Source of the DNA: an uncultured Bacilli bacterium
Lineage (GTDB): Bacteria; Bacillota_I; Bacilli_A; RFN20; DUOF01
NCBI GenBank assembly: GCA_944363575.1
Contig: CALVUJ010000002.1
Location: forward strand, 1 to 42,439
Direction: 5' to 3'
DNA length: 42,439 nucleotides
Within the stretch, counting starts at the first letter, position 1; each line of letters starts with the position of its first letter. Shown here piece by piece: positions 10,888 to 36,938 of the stretch. The translations under genes and the position numbers were made by a program. The notes beneath the pieces are model-generated. The model was not told the DNA's origin. It saw only the letters and a list, made by a program, of their open reading frames with translations, and did no database searches.

Positions 10888-11301
10888 TTAATAATTCTCC
10901 TCTTCTTCCTCTTCTTCCTCTTCTTCTTCTACTAATTCTTTTTCCTCTAATTCATCATCAAATTCACTATGATAAACTTCCTCATCATCTTCTTCTTCTT
11001 CATCTTCCACTAATTCTTTCTCTTCTTCATCAATTTCTGTATAAACATCATTCATATCAATATGAACCTTATCAAAACATTGTCTCTCTCTTAAATCCCA
11101 AGTATTATCCTCTAATAAAACAAATCTCTCATCTAAACTCAAATTAGTATAAAAATCAGAAATATAATCATTAGCTTCATCTTCACTCAAACCTAAAACC
11201 TCACTAACTTCACCCCAAAACTTATTAAACTTTTGAGGCCCTTGCTTCTTTGACAACAATTCATAACCTACTTCTACCATTGATCTTTTTAACATATTCA
11301 T
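10888..11301 (-). CDS. rpoE: DNA-directed RNA polymerase delta subunit
   Basis: N-terminal HARE-HTH-like domain (FYTNLSLDERFVLLEDNTWDLRER) plus poly-acidic C-terminal tail typical of delta. Confidence 0.85.
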   Translation of the reverse strand: MNMLKRSMVEVGYELLSKKQGPQKFNKFWGEVSEVLGLSEDEANDYISDFYTNLSLDERFVLLEDNTWDLRERQCFDKVHIDMNDVYTEIDEEEKELVEDEEEEDDEEVYHSEFDDELEEKELVEEEEEEEEEEENY

Positions 11302-19859: not shown

Positions 19860-20745
19860 GCACACTTGAAATATAAATATCAACAATTGTATTTATATCA
19901 AACTGCTTTATAAAAGAAGCAAAATCACACTTATTAAAATTAATTATAATTCTTAAATAATATTCACTACTTTCAACAATCTCAATATCTCCTTTAGGAA
20001 TACTATAACTCTTATTAAAAATTATTCTAATTTCTTTTTCTTGCCAATATTTTTCCTTTATTTCTTCAAAATCCCCATCAATAACAATACTCCCATCCTG
20101 CACTACACACACTCTTTTACAAATTTTCTCAACATCCATTATATCACTACTCGCCACCACAATCGATGTCTTAAATTCTTTATTAATTCTCTTAAAAATC
20201 TTCAAAACAATATTTTTCTCAACCAAACTAATATTCCCAAAAACATCATCCAAAAAGATAACTTCTGGATTCCTTAACATCATCATCGCTATATTAACTT
20301 TAATTTTTTCAAGCCCATCTAAACTAGCCACTTTCTTACTAAAAACACGATCAATCCCCACTACTTCTTTAAACTCATTAATCCGCTTTTCAACATCCAA
20401 ACTACTAATTCTAAGCTTACTCCCATAAATCATCAAATTATTATACACAGACTCATTATTTGCTAATCTATAATCAAAATAATCACTAATCACTAAACTT
20501 TCTTTTCTCAATCTCTTATCATCCACAACTCCATCTACTAAAATATTCCCACTCGTAGGCTTCGTTTTACCACTTAACAAATTAATAATAGTAGTCTTCC
20601 CTGAATCAGGACGCCCCACTAAAGCTATAATTTCCCCTTGCCTTATAACCAAATTTAATTCTTTAACAATCTCTATTTTCTCACTCTTTATAAAATTCTT
20701 CTTAATCTTTATACTTTTTGAAACATTTTCAACAACAATCTCCAT
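19843..20745 (-). CDS. ABC-type ATPase-like protein with degenerate signature and Walker B motifs, plus a ~90-aa C-terminal extension
   Basis: Walker A GRPDSGKTT. Q-loop/ABC fold. The expected LSGGQ signature position reads SLDGLEK. Walker B IFLDDV (D instead of the catalytic E). No permease gene adjacent. Confidence 0.6.
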   Translation of the reverse strand: MEIVVENVSKSIKIKKNFIKSEKIEIVKELNLVIRQGEIIALVGRPDSGKTTIINLLSGKTKPTSGNILVDGVVDDKRLRKESLVISDYFDYRLANNESVYNNLMIYGSKLRISSLDVEKRINEFKEVVGIDRVFSKKVASLDGLEKIKVNIAMMMLRNPEVIFLDDVFGNISLVEKNIVLKIFKRINKEFKTSIVVASSDIMDVEKICKRVCVVQDGSIVIDGDFEEIKEKYWQEKEIRIIFNKSYSIPKGDIEIVESSEYYLRIIINFNKCDFASFIKQFDINTIVDIYISSVPISVY

Positions 20746-21799
20746 AATCTTTTCTCCTTTTTAAACTTTTATACTTATTAATTTTCTCCTTCTTATGACC
20801 TTTCTTCACTATCCAAAATAAAATAAGCCCCGAAAGCAAAATAACACCCACAATTAATAACCACCAATAATCAACTTGCTCCTCCACTACTAATAAAACA
20901 CCTAACCCATTACTTGAATATTGTAAATACCCATCTAAATATTCATACTCTAACTTCTCATACACCCCATCATAAACACTATATACCTGTACTCTTCTAT
21001 TTTTAATTTTCTCCTCACCAATAAAAATTTTAGCACTAACCTTCCCATCTACCTCTACTCTTTCATTACCACTCTTCAAATAAACATCCCAGGCACTCCA
21101 AACAACATAGTTATCCAAACCATACTTACTAGAATCACCCTTATCTACAAAAATCGTAGAATTAATCGGTACATACGTATTATCATCCAGTTCTATTTTA
21201 TTTTTTATTTCTCCCATTTTTTCGATTATTCGCGGATGTATACTTCCCGTATACCCATCCAAACCTAAATAATAATTATTACTATTCTTCCCTTCTAAAC
21301 TTAAACCACTTAACTCAACGCCTATATTCTCTCCAACAATAATACTCGAAAAAACTCCCTTTAATTTTCCCTTAACATAAACATCTTCATCAACAATCCC
21401 CACTACTACATATGAAGGCAATTCTAACAAGTTATTCCCATCATACTGCTTACGAATCTCATCTTCAAATCTAACATAAACTTTCTTAGGAATAATCGTA
21501 ATATTTACACTCAGCTCTACTTTTTCATAATTATTATCAAACGGCTCAAATATAACCTGTTCCTCATGATCACCAACACCTAAAACTTTAGTATCTTCTT
21601 TCCAATAAAACGTCCCCTCAACACTAGCCATACCACCACTTAATTCCGACTCAAATAAAGGAGACCCATATGGTATTTCTTCTGCTATTGGCTTTTCAAG
21701 CACACTCGTCGCTTCCAAACCATTTGCTAAATTGTTACTAAATAAAAAAAGAGTTACTAATAAGCAAACAAAATAAATTACACATCTTACTTTCCTCAT
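20729..21799 (-). CDS. Secreted/membrane-anchored protein with MBG/YDG-type repeat and C-terminal TM plus basic tail
   Basis: Signal peptide MRKVRCVIYFVCLLVTLFLFSNNLANG. KQYDGNN motif. C-terminal WWLLIVGVILLSGLILFWIV followed by KKGHKKEKINKYKSLKRRK. 17-nt overlap with the ATPase gene (operon). Confidence 0.6.
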   Translation of the reverse strand: MRKVRCVIYFVCLLVTLFLFSNNLANGLEATSVLEKPIAEEIPYGSPLFESELSGGMASVEGTFYWKEDTKVLGVGDHEEQVIFEPFDNNYEKVELSVNITIIPKKVYVRFEDEIRKQYDGNNLLELPSYVVVGIVDEDVYVKGKLKGVFSSIIVGENIGVELSGLSLEGKNSNNYYLGLDGYTGSIHPRIIEKMGEIKNKIELDDNTYVPINSTIFVDKGDSSKYGLDNYVVWSAWDVYLKSGNERVEVDGKVSAKIFIGEEKIKNRRVQVYSVYDGVYEKLEYEYLDGYLQYSSNGLGVLLVVEEQVDYWWLLIVGVILLSGLILFWIVKKGHKKEKINKYKSLKRRKDYGDCC

Positions 21800-23423: not shown

Positions 23424-23456
23424 AAAAAGGGAAAATGATTTTTTTCCCTTTTTTAC
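23424..23456. terminator. Bidirectional intrinsic terminator between the SPFH gene (+) and VirB4-like-1 (-)
   Basis: AAAAAGGGAAAAatgaTTTTTTCCCTTTTTT, a palindromic hairpin with T/A runs on both sides. Confidence 0.65.
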
Positions 23457-25906
23457 TTTTTGAAAACTCTTTCTTCGTTTTTAGTAACGACAATCTTATC
23501 CATCGTTAACCTTTGCCCAGGTGCCACAACAAACAAACATTGACCAATACCTGCATTCGCAATAAACTCTCGCTCTTCATCAGAGAACCCACCAACTGAA
23601 GCATACAAATCCATCAAAGCCTGCAAATCCGCAGGATTCAAACCAAATATAAACGAATATTGACATCCATTAATAATAGAAGTAGTATATTTTTTAATAT
23701 TTGCACTACCAACGAAGTCATTAACGTTTTGAGTAATAACTACAAAAATACCATTATATTTTCTTATACGCTTAACCATTTGGTGCATAAAGTACAATGC
23801 TGCTGGACTTCTCTCATCAATAAACACATGCGCCTCATCTACTACTATTGCCACATGCTTATTCTCATGCCTAGCAATATTTCTTTCCCTATTCTTACTA
23901 ACTTCATTTTCTAAGAAACGAAGAACTAACAACATTTGTGAATTCATAACCATATCATTTTTAGAAGAAGAAGCCTTCCTAAAATCAAACAAAATCAAAT
24001 CACTAGTACTCGTATCAATAGTCGTAGGCCCATTCCACAAACTAGCTAACGAACCCTCTCCACTCAATCTTTCAAAATAAACTTCAATATTCCTTAAATC
24101 ACTTAATTCATCACCTAAATCAATTGATCTATTAGAATCTTTTATAATTAAAGCTGTTATTTTTTCGATTTTTTCCTTAACAATAGCCATCGCATCATCC
24201 ATTATAGGATAATCTTCAGCCTTTAACTTCTCAAAATTATCCGTTTTCTTAATTCCTTTTCTTTCATAAGCTTCAGTCATAATCTTAGACATTCTCGCTA
24301 ATTCTTTATTGGTTAAATCAGGAATTAAGTTTTGCATAAATTGCTCTAAAAATTGAATATGATTAGAAAAAATTGCTCTATACCCTTCCTCTTTTTGCTG
24401 CTCTGTCATCTCCTCTTCATCATCTTCTTGCATCGCTCCAAAAATATGGAAAGGATTTATTCTTGAGTTATTACCTGCTCCAACATCAATAATTTGACCC
24501 CCTAACTTCTTAGTCATATAATCATACTCACCTTCTGGGTCAATAATATAGGTCTTAACATCCTCTAAAATAAGTTTTAACAACATCTTTTTTGTAAAAT
24601 GCGATTTACCAGAACCAGACTTACCAATAACCATAATGTTCGAGTTAGTTCTACTCGTAGATCTAACCTTAGGATCAAAGAAAATCAAACCAGCAGCATT
24701 ATACCCTAACCAAAACCCATCTTTATCATCTAAGCCTTGAAAAATAAAAGGGAAACCTGCCCCAAGTGTACTACAAGGAATATCACGACCATTAGACATA
24801 ATAATATCATCTCTAGGTGTAGGAAGCATAGCTATTAATCCATTTGTCTGCCTAAGAGGTAACTTATCAATTTTAAATCTTTGTTGCTTTAAAGATGAGA
24901 TTACCTTACGATTATTATTCCTTAAATCTTTCTCTGTCTTAGCATAACTCATCGTATAAATATTAATCAATTTAAGCGTCTCATTTCCTCTTTCTATATC
25001 CGATAACACTTCATAAAAAGACTCTAATTGCGTTTGTTTACTCATAGATTCAGAAACTTTACCATGCTCTAACATCTGTGTTCTAATCTCCCTAATAGCT
25101 TTATCCATAAGCATCTTAGCGGTAGAAACCTCTACATTCCTAACATTAACTACCACTGTTGTATCAGGATGCGACATCACCAACGATAGCCATGCACCAG
25201 GAACATCTCTTGGATACTCATATGTAGAAAGAATACTCGCATACATTGAATCTGTCCTAATTTTAGTACTAAAAAACTCTAACTCTTCAGGCATTATATC
25301 TTGTTTATAATCTTCACAAGTTTCAAAATATTTATCATTTTTCGTACCATATGGATTAAACACATAATAAAAGAAAGCCTTAATTTCACTATCGCTACAT
25401 TCCTTAGGTTCCAACTTATTAATCTCTAATTTTTCAAAAACACTGTTATATACAAAATTTAAGTCTTCCAAATTGTTACCATAAATAACTAAATAAAATT
25501 CTTTAACCATTACAGGATAATCTTCTTGATAAGTTTTCATAACTTGCCATTCAAAATCAACCTGCTCTTTTCTATTACGATAACCTTCCTCACTCATATC
25601 CTTATTAGCAAACTTTTCATCTTGTAAAGCATACAACCTCTCCTGCTTATTAATTGCATTCGTTAAATCCAAAGGCCTTTCCAATTTAACAATACTGCAA
25701 TCACCTTTAATCAAATTAAAAGCATTAGTCATTTGCCTAATCTTCGTTCGTTGATCTTCCAAAGATAAATATGCCAAATTTAAACTTCCAACTTTAATAA
25801 CCTTACTAATTTTATTAGTAGTATATGTCACAACACCATTTTCAATTTTCTTAATTGGAAGAAACTCTAAAATATTTCCTCCCTTTCTTGCTGAATTATT
25901 TGCCAT
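23453..25906 (-). CDS. VirB4/ConE/TcpF/Orf16-family conjugation-type ATPase (paralog 1)
   Basis: Walker A IGKSGSGKSHFTKKM followed by IIDPEGEY. Walker B-region IVVDEAHVFIDE. N-terminal LPIKKIENGVVTY as in Gram-positive VirB4 homologs. 817 aa. Confidence 0.85.
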   Translation of the reverse strand: MANNSARKGGNILEFLPIKKIENGVVTYTTNKISKVIKVGSLNLAYLSLEDQRTKIRQMTNAFNLIKGDCSIVKLERPLDLTNAINKQERLYALQDEKFANKDMSEEGYRNRKEQVDFEWQVMKTYQEDYPVMVKEFYLVIYGNNLEDLNFVYNSVFEKLEINKLEPKECSDSEIKAFFYYVFNPYGTKNDKYFETCEDYKQDIMPEELEFFSTKIRTDSMYASILSTYEYPRDVPGAWLSLVMSHPDTTVVVNVRNVEVSTAKMLMDKAIREIRTQMLEHGKVSESMSKQTQLESFYEVLSDIERGNETLKLINIYTMSYAKTEKDLRNNNRKVISSLKQQRFKIDKLPLRQTNGLIAMLPTPRDDIIMSNGRDIPCSTLGAGFPFIFQGLDDKDGFWLGYNAAGLIFFDPKVRSTSRTNSNIMVIGKSGSGKSHFTKKMLLKLILEDVKTYIIDPEGEYDYMTKKLGGQIIDVGAGNNSRINPFHIFGAMQEDDEEEMTEQQKEEGYRAIFSNHIQFLEQFMQNLIPDLTNKELARMSKIMTEAYERKGIKKTDNFEKLKAEDYPIMDDAMAIVKEKIEKITALIIKDSNRSIDLGDELSDLRNIEVYFERLSGEGSLASLWNGPTTIDTSTSDLILFDFRKASSSKNDMVMNSQMLLVLRFLENEVSKNRERNIARHENKHVAIVVDEAHVFIDERSPAALYFMHQMVKRIRKYNGIFVVITQNVNDFVGSANIKKYTTSIINGCQYSFIFGLNPADLQALMDLYASVGGFSDEEREFIANAGIGQCLFVVAPGQRLTMDKIVVTKNEERVFKK
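23505..23930. repeat. ~420-bp near-identical DNA segment shared with 28325-28740 (3' ends of the two VirB4-like paralogs)
   Basis: Example: gcctgcaaatccgcaggattcaaaccaaatataaacgaatattgaca[t/a]ccatt is identical but for 1 nt in both copies. Spurious plus-strand track ORFs 23660..23914 and 28331..28615 translate to the same peptide. Confidence 0.8.
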
Positions 25907-26201
25907 TTTTCTTCACTACACTCTTCTTCTTATAATACTTTTCTTGTGACATATACGCAAATAAAACATCAAAACTTTGATACCCCTTCTTATTAACAAT
26001 AAACGAAGGAGAAACCATAAACAATGTAATAAATCCAATAATAGCAACAACAATAATCTTAGGAACCATTCCCCAAGATGTTTTAAAAATTAAAACACAG
26101 ATGATTGCCGCTACAATGACCATGGCCGCTTCTACAACGCCCAACCCCTTAAATAACTGCATCTTAACATTTCTAGCTGATTTTGGTATCAAATATCCCA
26201 T
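25896..26201 (-). CDS. Small 2-TM membrane protein, VirB3/TcpE/ConD-like by position and topology
   Basis: 101 aa with two hydrophobic helices (VVEAAMVIVAAIICVLIF; IIVVAIIGFITLFMV). Overlaps the VirB4-like start by 11 nt. Sequence-level homology not verifiable by eye. Confidence 0.5.
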   Translation of the reverse strand: MGYLIPKSARNVKMQLFKGLGVVEAAMVIVAAIICVLIFKTSWGMVPKIIVVAIIGFITLFMVSPSFIVNKKGYQSFDVLFAYMSQEKYYKKKSVVKKNGK

Positions 26202-26204
26202 AAA

Positions 26205-28178
26205 CTATACCCCCTTCTTTTGATTGTTATAGAAATCATTTGCCTTAGAACTAGCTTCCATTAACTTCTCTCTTTGTTTATCTGCTCTTTCTTTAACTCT
26301 AAGAGCATCTGCCGTACTCATATTACCAGAACTAATCTCACTAAGTTTTCTAGCCGTTTTACCATATTCAACTTGTGCCTTACGATATGCTGTCGTAATT
26401 TTCTTTAACTCTTCTTGTTGCTTAGAAGACAAATCATTACTCAACTTCGTAGACTTACTTGCAAAATCACGATACCCTTCCTTAGCAACTTTCTCTTCTT
26501 TCTTATATGCTTCAACATATTTAACCATTGAACTCTTAATTTTTGTTTGCTCACCACTACTAATTGAATTATCTAAGTCTTTACTTGCACTCTCAAATTC
26601 TTTTACAACTTCTCTAGAACTAGCACTATTAGAATTCTTCATAAAGCCCCATTCTTGACGAATCTTATCGTTTTCTCTCTTATAACCTGACAAGCTTCTA
26701 TCCAAAACCTCAGTTGGATCAAAACTAGATACAGCATTTTCAGTTGTTTTATAATTACCCCTAATTGCACCACTATCATTACTTCTTGTTTCTCTCTCTG
26801 CTAAAGAAACATTAGCTCTATTTTGAATATTATTAACATGCCTATCAACATTACTTACATTCATATTAACATTATTTCGCACACTACTATTAACATTTAC
26901 TGTTGGCTTAGCTTTCTCTGAATCAGAAGAAACACTCTCATTATAATTAATAATTTTTCTCGTTGAAGTACTAGTCTTTGTAATAACTCTTGTCCTAGGT
27001 GTTGAACTCTCTCCCTTTACAATCGGTGTTTGCTCTTTAGGACCCAATCTATTAAAGATGCCTTCTAATATAGCTCCACTATCATCATTAGAACTTCTAA
27101 ACGTATTTCCTAATAACTCTCCAGAATCTTTAGCCACTGTAGTACCAGCCATCAATAATAACATTTTAGTAAGATTGTTGATTAACAATACTGTCTCATT
27201 AACCTCCGTTTCACCATCTGCTAATGCTTTAATAGCCCCTAAACTACCATCACCAGTAGCTTCAGTTGTTACCTTAACAAGTTCTAAATCATTAATTACA
27301 CCAACCAAAGAAATTAAAATCATAAAAACAATTACAGTACCAATAATTGAAAACAATTCCGGCAAAGCTTTATTCTTCCATTCTCTAAGCTTACTACCCC
27401 CATCATCTACCATTCTAGCAATATAAAAAGGTGCTACCAAATACAAAACAATAATATTAAAAATACGCTTAATTAACTTCAAAACAATTACCACCAAATT
27501 GAAAACAATTACACCGCCACCTAATAAATATACATACCAATAAAAAGTAACTGTTCCTGTTCCACCATATTCTAAATCAAACAAGAAACCATTCTCCATT
27601 TGCTTCCAACTCGTAATCTCCGTCCCATACATAGCATTATATGCCTCAACAGGATCCCCACTAAAACTAATATTAAAAATTAAATCTGCTAACGAAATAT
27701 TACTATTATCACCAAAAATCCCCACAATTGCAGTAGTAATCGTACTAATAGAAGAAATCGCAAACAAAGACAACGGAGCTAAACATATTAAAAGAAAAAA
27801 AGCTAAAACCATATTTCTAATAACACCTACTGTTGACTTAGTTTCTTCTTTACTAAAATACATTTGCTTAATAACGGCAATTGTACCAAAAATAGCCATC
27901 AAAATAACGGAAGTAAAAAGCATAAATAAAGAAACATTAGAAACAATATTTTGATTAAACAGTTGACTTAATAAATCCTGTTCCTCCACCAAATTTTCAC
28001 TACCTGAGCCCAAATAATTTACCCCAACCAATTTATAAAACAAACCTGTAATAACATCAATTAAATTACCAACAGCATAAACTATCTTCCAAAAAAGCTC
28101 ATATATTGCATATAATATGCCTTTAGCAATGTTCCCATATCCAGGATCATCTAACTTAAAAAAGTTAACTATAGACAT
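26205..28178 (-). CDS. VirB6/TrbL/ConG/TcpH-like polytopic membrane protein (paralog 1): N-terminal ~350-aa multi-TM domain, C-terminal ~300-aa hydrophilic coiled-coil/low-complexity domain
   Basis: Multiple TM helices. Shares the conserved block LVAPFYIARMVDDGGSKLREWKNK with paralog 2 (VAPSPISQIVLDGGTKFKQWLKK). Followed directly by the VirB3-like and VirB4-like genes. Confidence 0.7.
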   Translation of the reverse strand: MSIVNFFKLDDPGYGNIAKGILYAIYELFWKIVYAVGNLIDVITGLFYKLVGVNYLGSGSENLVEEQDLLSQLFNQNIVSNVSLFMLFTSVILMAIFGTIAVIKQMYFSKEETKSTVGVIRNMVLAFFLLICLAPLSLFAISSISTITTAIVGIFGDNSNISLADLIFNISFSGDPVEAYNAMYGTEITSWKQMENGFLFDLEYGGTGTVTFYWYVYLLGGGVIVFNLVVIVLKLIKRIFNIIVLYLVAPFYIARMVDDGGSKLREWKNKALPELFSIIGTVIVFMILISLVGVINDLELVKVTTEATGDGSLGAIKALADGETEVNETVLLINNLTKMLLLMAGTTVAKDSGELLGNTFRSSNDDSGAILEGIFNRLGPKEQTPIVKGESSTPRTRVITKTSTSTRKIINYNESVSSDSEKAKPTVNVNSSVRNNVNMNVSNVDRHVNNIQNRANVSLAERETRSNDSGAIRGNYKTTENAVSSFDPTEVLDRSLSGYKRENDKIRQEWGFMKNSNSASSREVVKEFESASKDLDNSISSGEQTKIKSSMVKYVEAYKKEEKVAKEGYRDFASKSTKLSNDLSSKQQEELKKITTAYRKAQVEYGKTARKLSEISSGNMSTADALRVKERADKQREKLMEASSKANDFYNNQKKGV

Positions 28179-28244: not shown

Positions 28245-28276
28245 AGTAAAAAAAGATATGTTGTCAACATATCTTA
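28245..28276 (-). terminator. Intrinsic terminator ending module 2 (perfect 10-bp stem overlapping the VirB4-like-2 stop)
   Basis: Minus strand reads AAGATATGTTGacaCAACATATCTT followed by TTTTTTTAC. Confidence 0.7.
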
Positions 28277-30706
28277 TTTAAACACACTCTCTTCCTCTTT
28301 ACTTATAATTATTTTTTCAATAATTAACCTTTGCCCAGGAGAAACAATAAACAAACATTGACCAATACCAGCATTACCAATAAAAATTCTCTCTTCATCA
28401 GAAAACCCACCAACCGAAGCATAAAGATCCATCAAGGCCTGCAAATCCGCAGGATTCAAACCAAATATAAACGAATATTGACAACCATTTATGATTGCCG
28501 TCGTATACTTCTTAATATTTGCACTACCAACAAAATCATTAACGTTTTGAGTGATAACTACAAAAATACCATTATACTTTCTTATACGCTTAACCATATT
28601 AAACATAAATTGTAATGCTGCTGGACTCTTCTCATCAATAAACACATGGGCCTCATCTACCGCTATCGCAATATAATGATCTTCTCCCTTTAACAAATTT
28701 CTTTCCCTATTCTTACTAACTTCATTTTCCAAAAACCTAAGCACAAGCATCATTTGAGCATTCATAACTTTATCATTTTTAGAATCATTCATCTTCTTAA
28801 AATCAAACAAAATAAAATCAGATGTTTTAGTATTAATCGTAGTCTCACCATTCCAAAGTGTAGCCAAAGAACCCCCACTACTCATCCTCTTCAAATAAAC
28901 TTCAAGATTCCTTAAATCATTCAACTCATCGCCCAAATCTGCTGCCCTATTAGAATCCTTAGTAATAATTGCTGCTAACTCATTAACTCGCCATTTAACA
29001 AGATTCATCAAATCATCAATAATAGGAAAATCCTTAGCCTCTAAACTTTGAAAATCCGTAGTTTCCTCAATTTTCTTTTGTTTATAAACTTCTACAATAA
29101 GAGAAGATAATCTCGCCACTTCCTTATCTGTTAAATCAGGAATTAAACTTTGAAAAAATTGTTCCAAAAATTGAATGTGTGAAGAGAAAGCAGCTCTTCT
29201 CAAACTATTAGCATTCTCTTCTCCAACTTCATCCTCATCTTGCAACTGCCCAAAAATATGAAAAGGATTAATACGCGAATCTACTGCTGCACCAACATCA
29301 ATCATTTGCCCGCCTAATTGCTTACAAATAATTTTATATTCACCCTCAGGGTCAATAATATATGTCTTAATATCTTGAAGCAACAACCTTAAAATCATTT
29401 TCTTCGTAAAATGTGATTTACCAGAACCAGATTTACCAATAATCATAATATTTGAGTTAGTTCTAGCCGGATTTCTAACCGTAGGATCAAAGAAAATCAA
29501 ATTAGTCTTATTATTACCTAATAAAAAACCTTTTTCATCCTCTAATGCTTGAAACACAAAAGGAAAACCAGCACCCAAACTCAAACAAGGAATATCCCTA
29601 CCATGATCTAACATAACATCATCCCTAGGAGTAGGAAGCATACTAATATACCCATCTAACTGCCTACACAACAACTTATCTGGTTTCATGGAATTTTGTT
29701 TAATAGCAGATGATACAGAATGTGATATAACCTTCAAATCTTTATCATTATCACTATAAGCCATTATCATTACATTAACTCTCTTTAAAACCTCACTACC
29801 TCTTTCAATCTCTTCCAAAATATACAAAAATGACTCTAACTGTGCTTGCTTAGCTATATCTTGCGAAGACTTATTCTTATTAAGCAACTGTGTCCTAACT
29901 TCCGTAATAGCTTTATCCATCAAATTTCTAGCCTCTGTCGTAGGAACATTCTCAATATTAATAACACAACTAGTATTATCTATATTCACTAAAGGAGCCA
30001 ACCAACTTGCATTAACATTCATAGGAAAATCTAAAACAGAAAAAGTAGTCGCATACATCGTATCAGTCTTAATCCTAGTAGTATTAAACTCTAAAAAATC
30101 TGGAAGAATATCATTAATATAATTTTCATTATCAACAAAATCATCCATTGTCTTTTGTCCAATAGGATTATACATATGATAAAACAAATACTTAATTTCT
30201 AAATCCCCACACTCAACAGGATCCACCTTCAATTGTGAAAACCTAGAAAAAACATCATCATATAACAACTTAAACTCCTCTGGATCTTTCCCATAAACAA
30301 TAAAATAAAACTCATTACTCAAAATATTAGCTTCATTATTAAAATACTCTAACCTTCTTTTTTCAAAATTAACTTGCTTTAATCTATTATTATAACCTTC
30401 CTCATTCATATTACCTTCTCTAAATTTACGATGCTGAATCTTAAGAAGTTCCTTTTGCTGCTCTATCTGCCTAGTTAAATCCATAGGCCTCTCCAACTTA
30501 ACAATACTGCAATCCCATTGAATAGAAGCCAAAATAGAAGCAAACTGATTTATTTTAACCTTCTGCTCTTCACTATCCAACAACAACAAATTCAAACTAT
30601 TTATCTTAATAACCCTCGCCAACATATTATTATGGTAAGTAACAACACCATCCTTAATCGATTTAACAGCAATAAAACTAGAAATATCTGCTCCTTTTTT
30701 CTTCAT
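28274..30706 (-). CDS. VirB4/ConE/TcpF-family conjugation-type ATPase (paralog 2)
   Basis: Walker A IGKSGSGKSHFTKKM, IIDPEGEY, IAVDEAHVFIDE. ~65% aa identity to paralog 1 overall, >90% over the C-terminal 140 aa. Start set at MKKKGADISS (RBS AAGGAG). The 22-codon upstream extension in the track ORF lacks an RBS. Confidence 0.85.
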   Translation of the reverse strand: MKKKGADISSFIAVKSIKDGVVTYHNNMLARVIKINSLNLLLLDSEEQKVKINQFASILASIQWDCSIVKLERPMDLTRQIEQQKELLKIQHRKFREGNMNEEGYNNRLKQVNFEKRRLEYFNNEANILSNEFYFIVYGKDPEEFKLLYDDVFSRFSQLKVDPVECGDLEIKYLFYHMYNPIGQKTMDDFVDNENYINDILPDFLEFNTTRIKTDTMYATTFSVLDFPMNVNASWLAPLVNIDNTSCVINIENVPTTEARNLMDKAITEVRTQLLNKNKSSQDIAKQAQLESFLYILEEIERGSEVLKRVNVMIMAYSDNDKDLKVISHSVSSAIKQNSMKPDKLLCRQLDGYISMLPTPRDDVMLDHGRDIPCLSLGAGFPFVFQALEDEKGFLLGNNKTNLIFFDPTVRNPARTNSNIMIIGKSGSGKSHFTKKMILRLLLQDIKTYIIDPEGEYKIICKQLGGQMIDVGAAVDSRINPFHIFGQLQDEDEVGEENANSLRRAAFSSHIQFLEQFFQSLIPDLTDKEVARLSSLIVEVYKQKKIEETTDFQSLEAKDFPIIDDLMNLVKWRVNELAAIITKDSNRAADLGDELNDLRNLEVYLKRMSSGGSLATLWNGETTINTKTSDFILFDFKKMNDSKNDKVMNAQMMLVLRFLENEVSKNRERNLLKGEDHYIAIAVDEAHVFIDEKSPAALQFMFNMVKRIRKYNGIFVVITQNVNDFVGSANIKKYTTAIINGCQYSFIFGLNPADLQALMDLYASVGGFSDEERIFIGNAGIGQCLFIVSPGQRLIIEKIIISKEEESVFK

Positions 30707-30720
30707 AATGATACTCCTTT

Positions 30721-30799
30721 CAAAACAAATAAAGGCCCAAAGGCCTTTATCTCCACACAGGCTCATTCTCATTGTAAATTAACCCATGTTTTTTTTCAA
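30721..30799 (-). promoter_or_regulatory. Putative internal promoter (TTGAAA-17-TACAAT, 30771-30799) plus terminator-like leader hairpin (AAAGGCC-uuug-GGCCUUU + AUUUGUUUUG, 30721-30748) immediately upstream of the VirB4-like-2 RBS
   Basis: Read directly from the minus strand between the stop of the VirB6-like-2 gene (30827) and the ATG at 30706. Confidence 0.4.
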
Positions 30800-30826: not shown

Positions 30827-33800
30827 CTACTTTTTATTGTTTCTTTCTTTAATTTCTACCTTAATATCATCAATCTTTCTCCTATGCCCAATAACTTCAT
30901 GAATAGCATTCTTAACTTTTTCTAATGTATTAGGATTCTTATTAGCAGCAAACTCTCTCATCGCATCATATGCTGTAGACAAACTATTAGCATAATCACT
31001 ATTTGCTCTCTTATACCTATCTAACAAAGCATTCTTATAAGAAGTTGGTTTTCCGTTATAATCAACTTCTTCAGAACCACCCTTAATTCGACCAATCGTC
31101 TTAACCATTGCATCAATCTTCACACCAGCATCTAAATCATGCGAATATTGAATAGCATCATATGCCATACTCTCTAATCTTTGAGCATCCGCTGCTGGAT
31201 CAAACACACCTTGTCCTCCAACAAGTGAATTACCATCAAACTTAGTAGTATCAAGAGAATGAGCAATGCCATCTAAAGCACTAGTTTGAACATCTATCAC
31301 TATCTTTTCTCTAGGTCCCCTAGCACCAGAATTCCTTCTAGGTTTTGGTGTTCCTCCACCTGCACTTCCTCCTGGTGTTGGTGTGCCTGTTCCACCTGTG
31401 TTTGCTTGATTACTACTATTATTATTTTGATGAACTCTCACTTCAACAGCAGGTCCTTGTTGTGCTTGTTGAGTTTGTGGTCTTGGTTGAGTAGTTGTAT
31501 TTTGTGGTCTTGGTTGAGTAGTTGTATTTTGTGGTGTTGGTTGATTATTTCCTCCAACAGTAGTTACTGTTACCTCAGGCGAAACTTCTGAATTCCCACG
31601 AATATTTTGTTGAGCTGTACGAAGAGGTGTAGCCCTTTTAACTGATTTAGCACCAAGTTTATTTATACCAGATACATTAACCTTTTTGAATTTATTATAT
31701 TTCTTCACTTGCTTTTCATTAATTTTGTTTAACTTTCTCTCTAATTTATCCGCTTTTGCGTTATCTCCACTATTTCTCATTACCGCAATATCAGATTCAA
31801 TTTGACTATACCTATCAGCATATTCTTTATAAGATTGATTGTTAGCTAAATTCTTCGCACTCTTTTTCTTAACATCTCCATATGTACTCCTCATAACTTC
31901 ACTCAATCCATCAGAAGCTTTAGCTAAAGCATCCTTCTTCTTAACTACAGCAGCTCTAGCCTCATTAACTTCTTTTTCAGATTTAGTACTATCAGAACGA
32001 ACTTCGTTATATTTATTAATTGCATCCGTATATTCCTTTCTAGCATTTGAATAATCAGACATCTTCGTTTGTAAGTTCTCATTTGCCTTTCCAGTAACAT
32101 CAACTGCCGTTCTTTGAACAGAAGCTGCATCATTTCCCATTCTGTCAAGACTGCTAGCACCAGAATCAACATTCATTGATTGATTTCTAGAAGACACTTC
32201 TTGTTGTAAATTAGTTGTCGCCGTTTGTAGTTCCTTTGAAGTTCCTTTTACTTTATTCTCAGCTTCTTTTTTCTGTTGCTCCCATTCATCTTTTTTCATT
32301 CCAGCAGGTTTCTTTTGTGAAATATTTTTATATTCTGTTAGAGCTTTATCATGTTTTGTTCTTGCTTCATCAAAATTAATACGCAACTTATCATATTGTT
32401 GTAAATTATTTCCCGCCGTTTCTAGTTCCTTTGAAGTTCCTTTTACTTTATTCTCAGCTTCTTTTTTCTGTTGCTCCCATTTATCATTTTTCATTCCAAG
32501 AGGTTTCTTCTTTGAAATCTTGTTATATTCTTCTTGAGCTTTTTCATGATTTGCTTTTGCTTTATCAAAATTATTACGCAACTCATCATTACCAGATACA
32601 CCATCCATCATATTTGAAGCTTCACTAACTTTATTTGCTGTCTCTGCAACATCATCACCCATTGTCTCAGTATTCCACTTAGACTCATCTGTATAATCTC
32701 TAGCATTCATTTCATTTACAGCATTGGCACTATTATTAACTGCCTCATCAGCATCCAATGCAGATTGAACCCTATCCATTGAATCATGAACACCAATATT
32801 ACCACTATTTAATACTCTCTTCTCAGCTTTGGTAACCTTATCTGCTGAACCAGGTTGACTCACTACATTATTATTCTTACTATTTTTACCTTTACCGTTT
32901 TTACCGTTTTCTTTCTTCTTTTGATTAGCTGACTTAGCCACAAATTTACCAACTTGTCGCTTAGTTTGATCAATCGTACCATGAACTGTTGACTCAACAG
33001 CACTGGCAACGCCACCCCAACCTGCAGCTTGAAGAACTGCTTTTGATAATATTCCAGCAGTAGATAAACCTGCTTTTGCAGCAGTTCCTGCGACACCAAG
33101 TGAAGTTGTACCAAGAGCAAGTAACCCTCTACCAGCCAAACCAAGAATGTTTCGACCAATATTCTTTTTAACACCTTGACGAGATAATGTTCCACGTGCT
33201 CCAATTCTTCCATTTGTATCTCCACCTTGAGGTGTTCCACCTGATCCATTTGCTGGTGCTGCTGATGTTGCTGATGCTCCGTCATTTGAGCCATCTTCTG
33301 GTGCTCCATCACCTGCGTTATCTGATGGTGCTGCTGCCTCTTCTGGTGCTCCATCACCTGCGTTATCTGCTGGTGCTGGCCCACCTGATCCTGGTGTTGC
33401 CGTTTCTGGTCCTGGCCCACCTGGTCCTGGTGTTGGTGTCTCTTTTTCTTCATTTTCTGGTGGACCTTCTTTTGGTTTAGGCTTCAATTTCCTCGCTCCT
33501 TTAACTGCAGAAAGTCCAAAACCAACAGTCGCACCAACTGCTTGTTTCGTTATGTCTAGAGCAGCTCCACCAACTGCTTTTGCCGCACCCATAACTGCTT
33601 GTCCACTAGCTCCCAACTCCATAGATGAGCTTCCTCCTGAAAGTAATGGAGTTATTGTTGCATCAATATCTGCAATCGCACCTACTCCAGCAACTATAAG
33701 CATTGCTTTTCCTAAAGCATTGATAGCGCTATCAACCCAAGATGGCTCTGTCCCCCCATAATACAAGAAACTTACATCATTACGCAACTCTAAAATCAAA

Positions 33801-34852
33801 TTATTGCTCTCTATAATATTACTAATTGACGTTGCTGCATCAGTAGAATCATAAGCATATTTTGCAACATCCAAATCATTGATAGCTCCAAGCATAAGGA
33901 AAAAAATCATAAACGACATTACACAACCAACGACCTTTAATGCTTCTTCCATAACTTTTTTTAACCATTGTTTGAATTTAGTACCGCCATCCAAAACAAT
34001 TTGAGAAATTGGTGATGGAGCAACGATAAAATATGCTACTAATTTATATAATCTTGTAACCATCGCAACCATCATTTTACCAACATTTAAAATTAAAATA
34101 AGACCAACAAAAATAAATATATACCAATGGAAATAAGATTGTTCTACCTGCGTACCATTAATTGAAAGTGATCCTACCCATTTTTCGGCAGTACTTTCAT
34201 TTATATAATAGTGAAAGAAAGTATCGCCCGAATACCATCCAAAATTATTCGGATCATACAATTCAGAATTAGGCAATGAAAAAGCAACCGCTCTAACACT
34301 TTGCCCTCCATCGTCCCAGCACATATTAAAGAGCATGGTACCTATTCCGCCTCCGCCATAACCCATTGCACGCATAACTAAAACTGCTAGCATACCGGAA
34401 ACTTCAAGCAAAAAAGTAAAAATAGGAATAACACAAATAAAAGCAAGAAAACTTAAGGCAACATCTCTAAAAATAGGAGCTTTAGAACGTGGCCCCGCTC
34501 TATCAAAATAATCTTGTTTAATAATTTTAGCAATGGCAAAAACAATTACTAGACCTAATGCTATTAAAGACAAATATATATATGCACTTCTAAATTCCTC
34601 TCTAGCTACAAAAAAGTTAACAATATCAACTTGTCCCTCATCTATACTTGTTGCCGATTCATCAAAAACAGGTGTAACCCCTGCAAATATAAAAAAAAGT
34701 TGAGTTAGTAAGTCAAGAACCCATGCTATTGCCTTAATAATTCCAAAATAAATACCATAAATAAACTTCCAAAAAGTATTTGTAATACCCCTAACGACAC
34801 CATCAATAAGACCTTGTAACCATTCCCAAAACAGGAAATTTATTCTTAACAT
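30827..34852 (-). CDS. VirB6/TrbL/ConG-like polytopic membrane protein (paralog 2) with ~900-aa repetitive C-terminal extension (G/P/T/A-rich linkers, coiled-coil repeats, Q/T/P-rich 9-aa repeats)
   Basis: N-terminal 440 aa homologous to paralog 1 (FWKFIYGIYFGIIKAIAWVLDLLTQLFF vs FWKIVYAVGNLIDVITGLFYKLVG; DGGTKFKQW block). The C-terminal region has internal DNA tandem repeats at 31484-31560, 32227-32590 and 33295-33440. Confidence 0.7.
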   Translation of the reverse strand: MLRINFLFWEWLQGLIDGVVRGITNTFWKFIYGIYFGIIKAIAWVLDLLTQLFFIFAGVTPVFDESATSIDEGQVDIVNFFVAREEFRSAYIYLSLIALGLVIVFAIAKIIKQDYFDRAGPRSKAPIFRDVALSFLAFICVIPIFTFLLEVSGMLAVLVMRAMGYGGGGIGTMLFNMCWDDGGQSVRAVAFSLPNSELYDPNNFGWYSGDTFFHYYINESTAEKWVGSLSINGTQVEQSYFHWYIFIFVGLILILNVGKMMVAMVTRLYKLVAYFIVAPSPISQIVLDGGTKFKQWLKKVMEEALKVVGCVMSFMIFFLMLGAINDLDVAKYAYDSTDAATSISNIIESNNLILELRNDVSFLYYGGTEPSWVDSAINALGKAMLIVAGVGAIADIDATITPLLSGGSSSMELGASGQAVMGAAKAVGGAALDITKQAVGATVGFGLSAVKGARKLKPKPKEGPPENEEKETPTPGPGGPGPETATPGSGGPAPADNAGDGAPEEAAAPSDNAGDGAPEDGSNDGASATSAAPANGSGGTPQGGDTNGRIGARGTLSRQGVKKNIGRNILGLAGRGLLALGTTSLGVAGTAAKAGLSTAGILSKAVLQAAGWGGVASAVESTVHGTIDQTKRQVGKFVAKSANQKKKENGKNGKGKNSKNNNVVSQPGSADKVTKAEKRVLNSGNIGVHDSMDRVQSALDADEAVNNSANAVNEMNARDYTDESKWNTETMGDDVAETANKVSEASNMMDGVSGNDELRNNFDKAKANHEKAQEEYNKISKKKPLGMKNDKWEQQKKEAENKVKGTSKELETAGNNLQQYDKLRINFDEARTKHDKALTEYKNISQKKPAGMKKDEWEQQKKEAENKVKGTSKELQTATTNLQQEVSSRNQSMNVDSGASSLDRMGNDAASVQRTAVDVTGKANENLQTKMSDYSNARKEYTDAINKYNEVRSDSTKSEKEVNEARAAVVKKKDALAKASDGLSEVMRSTYGDVKKKSAKNLANNQSYKEYADRYSQIESDIAVMRNSGDNAKADKLERKLNKINEKQVKKYNKFKKVNVSGINKLGAKSVKRATPLRTAQQNIRGNSEVSPEVTVTTVGGNNQPTPQNTTTQPRPQNTTTQPRPQTQQAQQGPAVEVRVHQNNNSSNQANTGGTGTPTPGGSAGGGTPKPRRNSGARGPREKIVIDVQTSALDGIAHSLDTTKFDGNSLVGGQGVFDPAADAQRLESMAYDAIQYSHDLDAGVKIDAMVKTIGRIKGGSEEVDYNGKPTSYKNALLDRYKRANSDYANSLSTAYDAMREFAANKNPNTLEKVKNAIHEVIGHRRKIDDIKVEIKERNNKK
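31484..31560. repeat. 27-bp tandem repeat (x~2.7) encoding QPRPQNTTT units
   Basis: tttgtggtcttggttgagtagttgtat repeated at 31484 and 31511, with a partial third copy. Confidence 0.75.
32227..32590. repeat. Two tandem ~195-bp (65-codon) direct repeats inside the VirB6-like-2 gene (EQQKKEAENKVKGTSKEL... coiled-coil unit)
   Basis: Copy 1 from 32227 and copy 2 from 32422. The first ~80 nt are nearly identical (gttcctttgaagttccttttactttattctcagcttcttttttctgttgctcccat). Confidence 0.8.
33295..33440. repeat. 45-bp and 33-bp short tandem repeats encoding the G/P/A/D-rich linker (DNAGDGAPE...; GPGPPG...)
   Basis: cttctggtgctccatcacctgcgttatctg at 33295 and 33340. ggcccacctg(a/g)tcctggtgttg at ~33377 and ~33410. 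Confidence 0.65.
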
Positions 34853-34939
34853 ACTACTACCTCCCCTTGAGTTTAAAATAAAAAAGAAAGCTAGAAAGCT
34901 TTCTTATCACCAACTAGCGGTTATTTTTTTTCCTCTTTA

Positions 34940-35269
34940 TTAGCTTGCTTGTTTAGCAAAATAACTCAATAGTATTTGAGCAACTGCTGCAACACCGTAA
35001 CCGATAGCAACACCAATTACTAACCACTTTAATGAGCCTATTTTTTCTTGCCTTACTTGTGGTTCATCTGCAGCTTTAACAATTTGAACACCTAGCAAAG
35101 CACCTTTAATAACCAACAACACACCTAGTACAATATAAATTATAACTAGCAATGTATTAGCAACATCAATAACAGTTGCCATTGCATCAGAAAGTCCAGA
35201 ATCCCCAATATTTGTAGAAGTATCAATTGAAGGACCACTTAAAAATGCCATTAACCTCATTAAACTCAT
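34940..35269 (-). CDS. Small 2-TM protein; possible VirB2/TrbC pilin-like or other T4SS membrane component
   Basis: 109 aa. Polar N-terminus then two hydrophobic helices (LLVIIYIVLGVLLVIKGALLGV; WLVIGVAIGYGVAAVAQILL). First gene of module 2, with its own promoter. Confidence 0.4.
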   Translation of the reverse strand: MSLMRLMAFLSGPSIDTSTNIGDSGLSDAMATVIDVANTLLVIIYIVLGVLLVIKGALLGVQIVKAADEPQVRQEKIGSLKWLVIGVAIGYGVAAVAQILLSYFAKQAS

Positions 35270-35431: not shown

Positions 35432-35459
35432 ACAAAAAAACTACACCTGAGTGTAGTCT
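35432..35459 (-). terminator. Intrinsic terminator after spoIVA
   Basis: Minus strand reads AAAGACTACACtcagGTGTAGTTTTTTT. Confidence 0.65.
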
Positions 35460-36938
35460 TTAAAAAACAATTGCAATTAAGTTTGTCTTACCCTTATTAG
35501 CTAAAGTCTTCATTAAATTCTGCAATTTAACTCTAGTAGAATCTGGTAAAGTAGTAAGTTTTGCTTTTATCCCATCATTTATAACATCTCCCATATTTCT
35601 ACCAAACATTTCTTTATTAAAGATTGCTTTAGGATCAACTTCCATCCCTTCTCCTAAATAATCTACTAAAGATTCACTTTGCTCCTTAATTCCTATAATT
35701 GGTTCAAAACTTGTCTCCACATCTACTTTAATAATATGTAACGTTGGTGCTTTCGCTTTAACTTTTACCCCATATCTATTACCCTGCTTAATTAATTCTG
35801 GTTTATCTATCACAATATCATCTAAACTAGGAGTAGCAAACCCATATCCTGTAGTTTTTGCCATTTCCACTGCCCCTGACAACTGCTCGTACTCTTTTTT
35901 AAGTTTGGCATACTCCTGCATAACCCCCAAAAGCACTACCGGATCATCAATATCAAACCCCATAACTTCTTTTAACACTTTTTCATATAAATCATCTTTC
36001 ATTTCAATAGATGTTTTAACAACACCAGTTGAAGTATCTACATCTACTATTCTAAAAGAAGTAACATTTTCATTTCCTTCCACAATTTCGCCAATTCCAT
36101 CAACATCTTTAACTTTCTTAGCAAAATTCATTGCTTCATAAATAGAATCTTTCAAGCTTTTTCTCAACCAATGTTCCCCATCTAAGACATTAACCCAACT
36201 AGGCAACTCTACTTCAATATTAGCAAGAGGAAACTCATACAAAGCTTCTTTCAACACTTTACTAACATCATCATTATTCAAAGTCTCAATATTAAGCCCT
36301 AAAACAGGAACATTATACTTACTCTTTAAATCATTAACAATTTTTAACACTTTTTCACTACTAGGATCCTTACTATTAACAATAACAATAAAAGGTTTTC
36401 CTAACTTAACTAACTCATCAATAATTTCATTTTCTGCCTCTACATAATTAGCCCTATCAATATCGGTAATAGAACCATCTGTAGTAACAACAATTCCAAT
36501 CGTAGAATGATCACTAATAACTTTTTGTGTTCCTATTTTAGCAGCCTCATCAAAAGGAATCGCATCCTCAAACCATGGAGTCTTAACCATCCTTACTCCT
36601 TCATCATCTCTATAACCCTTCGCATCTTTAATTACATATCCTACACAATCCACTAATCTAACATTAATATTCAAACTATCCTCAACATTAATCATAACTG
36701 AATTATTAGGCACAAACTTAGGCTCCATTGTCATAATAGTCTTACCTACTCCTGATTGAGGTAACTCATCAATCGTTCTTTTCTTATCTCCTTCATCACT
36801 AATATTAGGAATAATCGCTAATTCCATAAACTTCTTAATAAAAGTAGACTTACCACTCCTAACAGGACCCACTACCCCAAAATATAAATCTCCATTAGTT
36901 CTAGTCCCAATGCTCTTTAATAATTCTCTAGTATTCAC
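35460..36938 (-). CDS. spoIVA: Stage IV sporulation protein A (spore coat morphogenetic ATPase)
   Basis: N-terminus GDLYFGVVGPVRSGKSTFIKKFMELAIIPNI matches the SpoIVA Walker A region. 492 aa, the typical length. Confidence 0.85.
   Translation of the reverse strand: MNTRELLKSIGTRTNGDLYFGVVGPVRSGKSTFIKKFMELAIIPNISDEGDKKRTIDELPQSGVGKTIMTMEPKFVPNNSVMINVEDSLNINVRLVDCVGYVIKDAKGYRDDEGVRMVKTPWFEDAIPFDEAAKIGTQKVISDHSTIGIVVTTDGSITDIDRANYVEAENEIIDELVKLGKPFIVIVNSKDPSSEKVLKIVNDLKSKYNVPVLGLNIETLNNDDVSKVLKEALYEFPLANIEVELPSWVNVLDGEHWLRKSLKDSIYEAMNFAKKVKDVDGIGEIVEGNENVTSFRIVDVDTSTGVVKTSIEMKDDLYEKVLKEVMGFDIDDPVVLLGVMQEYAKLKKEYEQLSGAVEMAKTTGYGFATPSLDDIVIDKPELIKQGNRYGVKVKAKAPTLHIIKVDVETSFEPIIGIKEQSESLVDYLGEGMEVDPKAIFNKEMFGRNMGDVINDGIKAKLTTLPDSTRVKLQNLMKTLANKGKTNLIAIVF

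Follow-up and report, generated by a model that had tools for sequence, protein, structure and literature searches.

A lineage-specific, repeat-containing C-terminal tail on a VirB6-like protein of a chromosomal T4SS-like module in uncultured gut Bacilli

Gene content of the locus

We analyzed a stretch of 42,439 nucleotides from an uncultured Bacilli bacterium (assembly GCA_944363575.1, contig CALVUJ010000002.1), called here the window, and in it a VirB6-like gene that carries a very long 3′ extension. The gene occupies positions 30827..34852 of the minus strand (stop codon included), codes for a protein of 1341 amino acids (aa) and lies in a module resembling a type IV secretion system (T4SS). 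Along the minus strand, the gene order is cmk, der, spoIVA, a VirB2-like pilin gene, the long VirB6-like gene (paralog 2), a VirB4 gene, a short VirB6-like gene (paralog 1), a VirB3-like gene and a second VirB4 gene; these are followed by a convergent SPFH gene and then by udk, nth and dnaD.

The N-terminal domain of the long VirB6 (residues 1-450; 33503..34852, minus strand) is hydrophobic, polytopic and well conserved, with 45-55% identity within the family. It shows the VirB6 fold, that is about seven long, mostly hydrophobic helices, and has a loop domain at residues 163-242. The protein matched the NCBIfam models NF045848 (MMCAP2_0566 family conjugal transfer protein; 81.7 bits, E=5.5e-23, curated cut-off 90 bits) and NF045889 (Mbov_0396 transmembrane protein of an integrative conjugative element, ICE, an equivalog model; 43 bits, E=3.8e-11, cut-off 70 bits). 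In sequence terms, homology of the N-domain to the NF045848 family is clear, although the score stays below the cut-off. No Pfam family, the TrbL/VirB6 model included, matched the whole protein at E<=0.01, and the same was true for nine remote relatives. The assignment to VirB6 was made because of the two NCBIfam matches together with the flanking genes: the pilin-like gene upstream, VirB4 downstream, and the second set of VirB6-like, VirB3-like and VirB4 genes.

In the definition of Alvarez-Martinez and Christie, as summarized in PMC12857230, an extended VirB6 combines at least five hydrophobic helices with at least one large central or C-proximal hydrophilic domain. The long VirB6 has this layout, with its hydrophobic helices in residues 1-450 followed by a hydrophilic tail of 891 aa that has a grand average of hydropathy (GRAVY) of -1.03. 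These observations support the reading as a channel subunit of the VirB6 type whose C-terminal appendage is unusually long, modular and repeat-containing. The open reading frame (ORF) list and the NCBIfam matches bear out the initial annotation of this DNA, made from the letters alone, where it described a 1341-aa protein with a polytopic VirB6-like N-terminal part; the span singled out there for the extension, 30827-33900, corresponds to residues ~318-1341. The protein is identical to a single NCBI protein, and its cluster (P0001) has one member and holds no strain-level relative.

Upstream of the long VirB6 gene, the VirB2-like pilin gene (34940..35269, minus strand) encodes 109 aa with two hydrophobic helices joined by a charged loop; its matches to PF18895 T4SS_pilin (24.4 bits) and to the Mbov_0395 family model NF045849 (35.5 bits) are both under the curated cut-offs. 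A consensus scan placed terminator-like hairpins on the minus strand between the pilin and long VirB6 genes (34884..34905) and directly after spoIVA (35436..35461). The hairpin at 34884-34905 might dampen transcription that runs on from a highly expressed pilin gene to the long VirB6 gene.

Downstream, the gene of VirB4 ATPase paralog 1 (Mbov_0397 family; 28274..30772, minus strand) passes the NF045975 cut-off of 590 with 636 bits. Its true start is probably M23 (about 30706), because similarity to VirB4 paralog 2 (from residue 25) and to the NCBIfam model begins 22 codons into the longest ORF. The short VirB6-like paralog 1 (26205..28178, minus strand; 657 aa) passes the cut-offs of both NF045848 (116.5 bits) and NF045889 (81.6 bits), and the cores of the short and long VirB6 are 23% identical (E=5e-33). 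Its tail is, as described before, shorter (~300 aa) and essentially non-repetitive, with only a weak 21-bp repeat of 2.3 copies. The VirB3/PrgI-like small membrane protein (25896..26201, minus strand; 101 aa) aligns to the mycoplasma VirB4 model over that model's N-terminal 99 positions and, with 23.3 bits, misses the PF12666 PrgI cut-off of 27. VirB4 ATPase paralog 2 (23453..25906, minus strand) scored 613 bits against NF045975 and is 59% identical to VirB4 paralog 1.

Conservation of the module in related genomes

The order spoIVA-pilin-long VirB6-VirB4-short VirB6-VirB3-like-VirB4 recurs in L001-L003, L006 (partly), L009 and L010/L011, which are uncultured faecal "Bacilli bacterium" metagenome-assembled genomes (MAGs) and metagenome contigs. 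Identities to the window proteins in the syntenic loci were 86-88% for VirB4 paralog 1, 85-89% for SpoIVA and 85-87% for Der. Mobility and T4SS genes were inspected in the 42-kb window and in about 20-kb flanks of the relatives. Among the window ORFs of at least 100 aa, family scans identified no relaxase, coupling protein, DDE recombinase, integrase, VirB8 or VirB1, and no tRNA was found in the window. A VirB5-like protein did not turn up at the locus in the family scans, with no dedicated search made for it.

Because of the conserved synteny with spoIVA/der, the VirB4 identity that matches those of SpoIVA and Der, and the lack of mobility genes in the window, we conclude that the locus is not the ordinary T4SS taken for granted at first; it is a module of the mycoplasma-ICE type that is chromosomally fixed in a lineage of uncultured spore-forming gut Bacilli. 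From these sequence comparisons, the module has been passed on vertically, and strong purifying selection acts on it.

In a more distant Bacilli MAG (L004, 9349-16987), a lone trio of pilin, 1471-aa VirB6 and VirB4 genes lies between eno and pgi/glmM. A Fic-domain gene is located upstream of this trio, and there is neither a second module nor adjacency to spoIVA. In two of the syntenic loci (L010, 11535-12965; L011, 11310-12740), an extra gene of 476 aa without a Pfam match stands between VirB4 paralog 1 and the short VirB6.

Two further interpretations of the locus were considered and rejected. An integrative conjugative element does not fit the window, where there are no mobility genes and the housekeeping flanks are syntenic across species. 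A link to sporulation, or co-transcription with spoIVA, was discarded in view of the hairpin that follows spoIVA (35461-35436) and of the distant relatives that carry the trio beside eno.

Architecture of the tail

The ~890 residues that follow the N-domain are a lineage-specific modular appendage, encoded throughout on the minus strand. The first module is an acidic, low-complexity linker (residues 451-550; 33203..33502) with an isoelectric point (pI) of 4.3; its composition is rich in Gly, Pro, Thr, Ala and Asp, as had been described, and its GC content is 0.44 compared to ~0.31 across the window. A basic, weakly hydrophobic segment rich in Gly, Ala and Leu comes next (residues 551-625, pI 12; 32978..33202), followed by the Lys-rich residues 626-690. 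We characterized segment 551-625 by BLAST, consensus, hydropathy and hydrophobic moment: it is BLAST-detectable in about 23-25 of the 37 homologs and has the consensus A.TA.KTG...AGI.AKT...TGMG.

An alpha-helical region (residues 691-1056; 31685..32782) was delimited in an AlphaFold2 (AF2) model of the tail. It is followed by a second disordered region (residues 1057-1217; 31202..31684), rich in Gln, Pro, Asn, Thr and Gly and with predicted local distance difference test (pLDDT) values <50. In the C-terminal region (residues 1218-1341; 30830..31201), defined from BLAST coverage and consensus, the coverage peaks at 1265-1340, and the last ~70 aa are a conserved helical hairpin (RY..A...Y ... 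IK.EI; pLDDT 83-87). The conserved islands of the tail are residues ~555-650 and 1265-1340.

The AF2 model covers residues 551-1341, was built with 27 aligned sequences and has a mean pLDDT of 59; roughly half of it is predicted to be disordered, low confidence not being proof of disorder. The AF2 monomer has long antiparallel helical hairpins at ~740-890 and ~922-1050 with local pLDDT of 78-96. Of the coiled-coil repeats proposed in the initial annotation, this model supports only the long alpha-helical hairpins. The tail as a whole is net basic (pI 9.4). Neither Pfam searches at E<=5 with the whole tail and three sub-segments nor a PDB sequence search revealed a credible known domain. Foldseek against PDB gave no fold match at E<=0.001, the only similarities being to generic BAR-like long-helix bundles (E>0.02).

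Tandem repeats in the long VirB6 gene

Tandem Repeats Finder and a repeat finder located four sets of repeats inside the long VirB6 gene (all read on the minus strand), and these are far beyond chance. The largest is a 195-bp tandem duplication (32201..32589; 2.0 copies, Tandem Repeats Finder score 624) that encodes two 65-aa helix-loop-helix units, residues 755-819 and 820-884, as a part of the first helical hairpin block (~740-890). Its copies share 172 of 195 nt (88%) but 46 of 65 aa (71%). In the linker, a 45-bp tandem duplication (33294..33378; 2 copies, 98% over 40 nt, with a 31-nt perfect tract) encodes P[AS]DNAGDGAPE[ED] at residues 492-505/507-520, and a 36-bp tandem duplication (33370..33441; 2 copies, 86% identical) encodes ETPTPGPGGPGP / ETATPGSGGPAP at residues 471-483/483-495. 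Within the second disordered region, a 27-bp repeat (31474..31544; 2.6 copies, 97% match) encodes QP[TR]PQNTTT at residues 1103-1127.

The initial annotation had the 27-bp repeat right (as QPRPQNTTT), as well as the 45-bp and 195-bp periods. The second linker period given there, 33 bp, should read 36 bp, and the 65-residue units, said to be nearly identical, agree in 46 residues. Nor are the repeats perfect at the DNA level: no array is a perfect multi-copy repeat, and the longest perfect tracts are 59, 35, 31 and 12 nt. The 59-nt identical tract lies within the 195-bp unit and could promote unequal recombination. An assembly artefact, a concern raised along with the initial annotation, is an unlikely source of the repeats because their copies are imperfect and short (shorter than reads).

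Orthologs and length variation

All 37 homologs of the long VirB6 are 971-2053 aa long and keep a tail of 500-1600 aa; the six syntenic orthologs have 1362-1648 aa. A giant tail characterizes the family as a whole. We searched 1.84 billion representatives exhaustively with phmmer, using residues 142-1341, and obtained 123 hits, among which there was no relative of the tail outside the close family: every outside hit covers the N-domain core only. The remote hits, of 644-2215 aa, belong to the MMCAP2_0566/Mbov_0396 family. Various kinds of extension are common in this wider family, as some remote members place the core at residues 1000-1500. Specifically, in P0056, P0059, P0064-P0066, P0073 and P0078 the VirB6-like core is located at residues ~1000-1500 of 1600-2700-aa proteins, behind giant N-terminal extensions. 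Distinctive here is a tail that has no homologs outside a small family, yet is kept by all its members and shows repeat-number polymorphism.

Across the family, the linker is a tandem-repeat hotspot. In about 23 of 38 family members, the linker region contains short tandem repeats peculiar to that member; the units are unrelated, and the periods range from 5 to 48 aa. At the DNA level, tandem repeats (periods 15-48 bp, 2.3-11.4 copies) occur at aa ~510-680 in each of the six syntenic orthologs. The sister-species proteins L001, P0013 and P0015 are 97-99% identical and differ in length only inside the array of a 15-aa (45-bp) unit, PNATQGGEQQEEAVD, which is present in 4, 5 and 2 full units, respectively. 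The linker changes length by gaining and losing short tandem units, and the helical region has been enlarged by duplication of the 65-aa module. In somewhat more distant pairs, the linker was always the most divergent and most indel-rich window. We also observed that between close relatives the tail has, as a rule, diverged more quickly than the core, at times as a mosaic. The expected size variation by repeats is real in the sister-species orthologs, with their 2, 4 or 5 units; the long VirB6 itself has ~2 copies and no strain-level relative for comparison.

Rates of divergence

For the other proteins of the module, identities to the window proteins in the syntenic loci were 77-83% (VirB3-like), 59-65% (pilin) and 59-63% (short VirB6), compared to 43-50% for the N-domain of the long VirB6 and 21-31% for its tail. 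On these values, the long VirB6 is the fastest-evolving part of the module, and its tail diverges far faster than the neighbours. Between the two 195-bp copies there are 23 nt differences; they fall in 19 codons, each of which (19/19) is changed nonsynonymously. With about one quarter of random changes assumed to be synonymous, which is a rough assumption, the chance of zero synonymous changes among 19 is ~0.004. This pattern in the 65-aa repeats indicates either diversifying selection or a strong relaxation of constraint once the duplication had arisen.

Cysteine makes up 0.14% of the family tails compared to 1.02% of the N-domains. Exported proteins of Firmicutes tend to exclude cysteine. 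The depletion is compatible with this tendency and equally with a low-complexity or helical composition.

Location and proposed role of the tail

Our preferred explanation, to which we assign a probability of roughly 0.5, is that the long VirB6 is the extended VirB6 of a minimal mycoplasma-ICE-type module, with the tail directed outward as a wall tether and a contact or recognition element. The N-domain would oligomerize to form the base on which the adjacent VirB2-like pilin assembles, after R388 TrwI and the pCF10 PrgH/PrgF model. The idea of VirB6 as a pilin base comes from the R388 structure (PMC9259494), and the pCF10 PrgH/PrgF model, with VirB2-like pilins assembling on VirB6, was proposed only in 2025 (bioRxiv 10.64898/2025.12.18.695078). 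Most likely, the tail would emerge from the VirB6 core extracytoplasmically. Its Pro/Gly-rich repeat spacer may then act as an adjustable tether through the wall, and the helical rod with the C-terminal end would be displayed at the wall or beyond it for contact or recognition. Rod and end together would take the place of a VirB5 tip or an adhesin within the protein itself and would be under diversifying selection.

As to the side of the membrane, we rate an extracytoplasmic tail (the variant in which it is cleaved or delivered included) as slightly better than an even chance. The fast evolution, the nonsynonymous-only divergence of the repeats and the depletion of cysteine are consistent with exposure, as the sequences stand. 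The Pro/Gly/Thr-rich, copy-variable linker resembles the wall-spanning repeat regions of Gram-positive bacteria. Among VirB6 proteins there is the precedent of Anaplasma VirB6-3/-4, whose extended C-termini are trypsin-accessible on intact cells (PMC7648143); the C-domains of F/SXT TraG are cited in the same paper as acting outside the cytoplasm.

Several observations weigh against an outward tail. Fast evolution, cysteine depletion and tandem repeats are also found in cytoplasmic disordered or helical regions. Every repeat in the long VirB6 gene has only ~2 copies (2-2.6), and the single-member cluster P0001 offers no strain-level relative to show length variation. Domain and fold searches of the tail found no adhesin, wall-anchor or known binding domain, and the AF2 model comes from a shallow alignment (27 sequences, mean pLDDT 59). 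Family-averaged charges put the loops 111-130 (~5 K/R) and 288-305 (~4.8 K/R) inside; the net-acidic loops 61-90, 161-240 and 327-375 are then outside, and the chain is cytoplasmic after helix 372-405. The motif KGARKLKPKPK stands directly after the weak helix 415-452, and the Gly/Ala-rich segment is bracketed by K/R-rich stretches. The C-terminus of Agrobacterium VirB6 has been mapped to the cytoplasm, and the C-terminal region of TcpH is thought to be cytoplasmic as well. With loop charges indicating the cytoplasm, and the evolutionary signals and VirB6 precedent indicating exposure, the surface-exposed fibre or adhesin of the initial annotation is not established.

A cytoplasmic tail is a possibility that we hold tentatively. 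In the form that we find conceivable, again at a low level of confidence, it would be a flexible basic helical scaffold that docks the two VirB4 ATPases or recruits the substrate (DNA or protein) and so compensates for the missing coupling protein, with the Gly/Ala segment as a membrane-associated hairpin whose flanks are inside. Besides the loop charges and the Lys/Arg-rich stretches after helix 415-452 and around the Gly/Ala segment (pI 12), the net basic character of the tail (pI 9.4) and the lack of a coupling protein in the window scans speak for it. However, since the ATPases are 86-88% conserved, a surface on which they dock would be expected to show conservation too, whereas the tail is only 21-31% identical, and the tail of the short VirB6 is not detectably homologous to it. 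Homology of the two tails, suggested by a shared Y..A...Y motif, was rejected with a profile-profile hhalign probability of 0.3%; the 10-fold enrichment of the motif is a post hoc observation that comes mostly from two conserved alignment positions. The purely nonsynonymous differences between the 65-aa repeats also argue against the scaffold, and strain-level length variation is more typical of exposed proteins. Furthermore, charge rules may mislead for the VirB6 fold because in R388 VirB6 only the first two helices stay in the membrane, and the other hydrophobic helices, predicted to be transmembrane, form a periplasmic dome (PMC9259494). Seven up-down helices would place the two ends of the core on opposite sides.

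By analogy, the tail might be exported and then cleaved or delivered to a partner cell as a released effector or as a self/non-self determinant of the entry-exclusion type, which we regard as improbable. The helical rod has a disordered segment on either side, which could be a site of processing; the hypervariability and the mosaic of identities between close relatives would be in keeping with such a role; and a similar fate was proposed for F/SXT TraG C-terminal domains and Anaplasma VirB6-4 (PMC7648143). We identified no protease site, signal or TraS-like partner gene, though, and the tail has no sequence similarity to TraG or to any protein outside the family, so that the proposal is drawn entirely from analogy. 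Least probable of all, at only a few chances in a hundred, is a functionless, neutrally drifting low-complexity sequence, or in part an artefact of assembly or gene calling. The absence of a known domain, the disorder predicted for roughly half of residues 551-1341 and the very low sequence conservation would agree with it, but the reading frame is intact across 4 kb, the tail of 500-1600 aa is kept in 37 of 37 homologs, the islands at residues ~555-650 and 1265-1340 are conserved, and the helical hairpins are confidently predicted. The repeats, being imperfect and shorter than reads, also make collapse or expansion artefacts unlikely.

Comparison with known systems

Repetitive tails on extended VirB6 proteins are already known; new here is a chromosomally fixed, duplicated module of the mycoplasma-ICE type in uncultured gut Bacilli. 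Like the long VirB6, Anaplasma phagocytophilum VirB6-3/VirB6-4 and Rickettsia RvhB6a-e have a polytopic core with a huge hydrophilic, partly repetitive C-terminal extension. Anaplasma VirB6-4 has 4,322-9,935 aa and strain-variable tandem repeats (PMC7648143, PMC3556328). In Rickettsiales, repeat number varies between strains, and several VirB6 paralogs and a duplicated VirB4 are found in chromosomal, non-mobile systems (PMC3556328, PMC7648143, PMC2653234). Strain-variable C-terminal repeats have their counterpart here in the orthologs with 2, 4 or 5 units, the long VirB6 itself being a ~2-copy case without strain-level comparison. Anaplasma VirB6-3/-4 are the nearest functional analogue of the long VirB6. 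On the other hand, the phmmer search of 1.84 billion representatives gave no sequence similarity between the Rickettsiales tails and the tail studied here. The Rickettsiales are diderm Alphaproteobacteria that possess a complete P-type T4SS (VirB8-11, VirD4), unlike this locus; their arrays run to tens of copies (81 at most), compared to about 2-11 here, and their tails are strongly acidic (pI ~4), whereas the long VirB6 tail is basic overall (pI 9.4).

The closest sequence family to the N-domain (NF045848, NF045889) is CDS16 of mycoplasma ICEs (Mbov_0396 / MMCAP2_0566), called "likely the VirB6-like component" in a recent review (PMC12857230), although the scores fall short of the family cut-offs (81.7 < 90; 43 < 70). 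The consecutive tags Mbov_0395/0396/0397 imply the same order of pilin-like, VirB6-like and VirB4 genes, and CDS15, CDS16 and CDS17 are each needed for ICEA transfer (PMC6030558). The mycoplasma ICE also has a coupling protein (CDS5), a DDE transposase (CDS22) and inverted repeats, which this locus does not have. In addition, our locus is syntenic with housekeeping genes, its module is duplicated, and its host carries sporulation genes (SpoIVA here, SpoVIF in relatives), so it is presumably walled. For annotation, this means that matches to the Mbov_0395/0396/0397 NCBIfam families cannot serve to diagnose a mobile element.

Among proteins of solved structure, R388 TrwI/VirB6 and Legionella DotA share with the N-domain seven long, mostly hydrophobic helices at only 9-12% sequence identity. 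DotA also counts as an extended VirB6. A tail is missing from TrwI, whose solved chain has 261 residues, and TrwI pairs with a VirB5 tip protein encoded separately.

The C-terminal domain of TraG acts in mating-pair stabilization and entry exclusion, and its variable part carries partner-recognition specificity. With a VirB6-like polytopic N-domain and a large extracytoplasmic hydrophilic C-terminal domain (PMC7648143), F-plasmid/SXT TraG is similar to the layout described here. It has no sequence similarity to the long VirB6; its tail is folded and non-repetitive, its host is a diderm, and no TraS-like exclusion partner was identified at our locus.

The monoderm VirB6 homologs ConG (ICEBs1), TcpH (pCW3) and Orf15 (Tn916) have 700-900 aa with unstructured domains and have been likened to extended VirB6 (PMC12857230). 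They are shorter than the long VirB6, repeats are not reported for them, and, unlike this locus, they belong to mobile elements with VirB1, VirB8 and VirD4 homologs. The view that known tails are far shorter and non-repetitive holds for the ConG/TcpH type (PMC12857230) and fails for extended VirB6 proteins such as Anaplasma VirB6-4. In Pfam and NCBIfam scans, the family models of F-type TraG, ConG and TcpH did not match the long VirB6; pLS20_p028 gave a weak signal in remote relatives only.

The archaeal Ced/Ted DNA importers and the essential T4SS of Patescibacteria are, as here, chromosomal and non-mobile and have a core of VirB2-like pilin, VirB6-like protein and VirB4 that serves the host (PMC9905601, PMC12857230). 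They lack a giant repeat-bearing VirB6 tail, and there is no sequence relation beyond VirB4; a CedD match had E of 1e-5 to 1e-7, far under the cut-off. We consider, as a speculative extension that is more doubtful than probable, that the locus is a two-module T4SS of mycoplasma-ICE ancestry domesticated for the benefit of the host, with the hypervariable tail of the long VirB6 as a built-in tip that would choose partner cells for DNA or nutrient exchange and replace VirB5 or a separate adhesin. If true, the domesticated machine would be a rare bacterial counterpart of Ced/Ted in abundant uncultured gut bacteria.

How a Gram-positive T4SS crosses the wall and contacts the partner is an unsettled question that bears on this locus, and PMC12857230 states outright that no role is known for the hydrophilic domains of extended VirB6. 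The locus provides tails of 500 to 1600 aa as a natural series on an otherwise highly conserved, minimal chromosomal core. With no adhesin, VirB5, VirB8 or coupling protein identified nearby (VirB5 by family scans only), it is a clean system for the function of extended-VirB6 tails.

Other features of the window

The window has a GC content of ~31%, and nearly all its genes are on the minus strand; the GC skew is uniform and extremely strong, most 1-kb windows lying at about -0.4 to -0.8. Near the T4SS cluster there are two genes for proteins with domain types typical of surface proteins, which could be separate adhesins: a 1212-aa protein with BspA-type leucine-rich repeats and MBG domains (11371-15009, minus strand) and a 356-aa protein with a YDG domain (20729-21799, minus strand). 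At 1637-2164 (minus strand), a gene codes for 175 aa with a Cap15 cyclic-dinucleotide receptor domain (PF18153, E=8e-12), which suggests a defence effector of the cyclic oligonucleotide-based antiphage signalling system (CBASS) type; it is adjoined by a 218-aa ORF (2151-2807) without a Pfam match. Clustered tandem repeats of 3, 9 and 15 bp (TCT/TCCTCTTCT, plus strand) are located at 10898-11007, inside a 137-aa ORF (10888-11301, minus strand) that also has no Pfam match.

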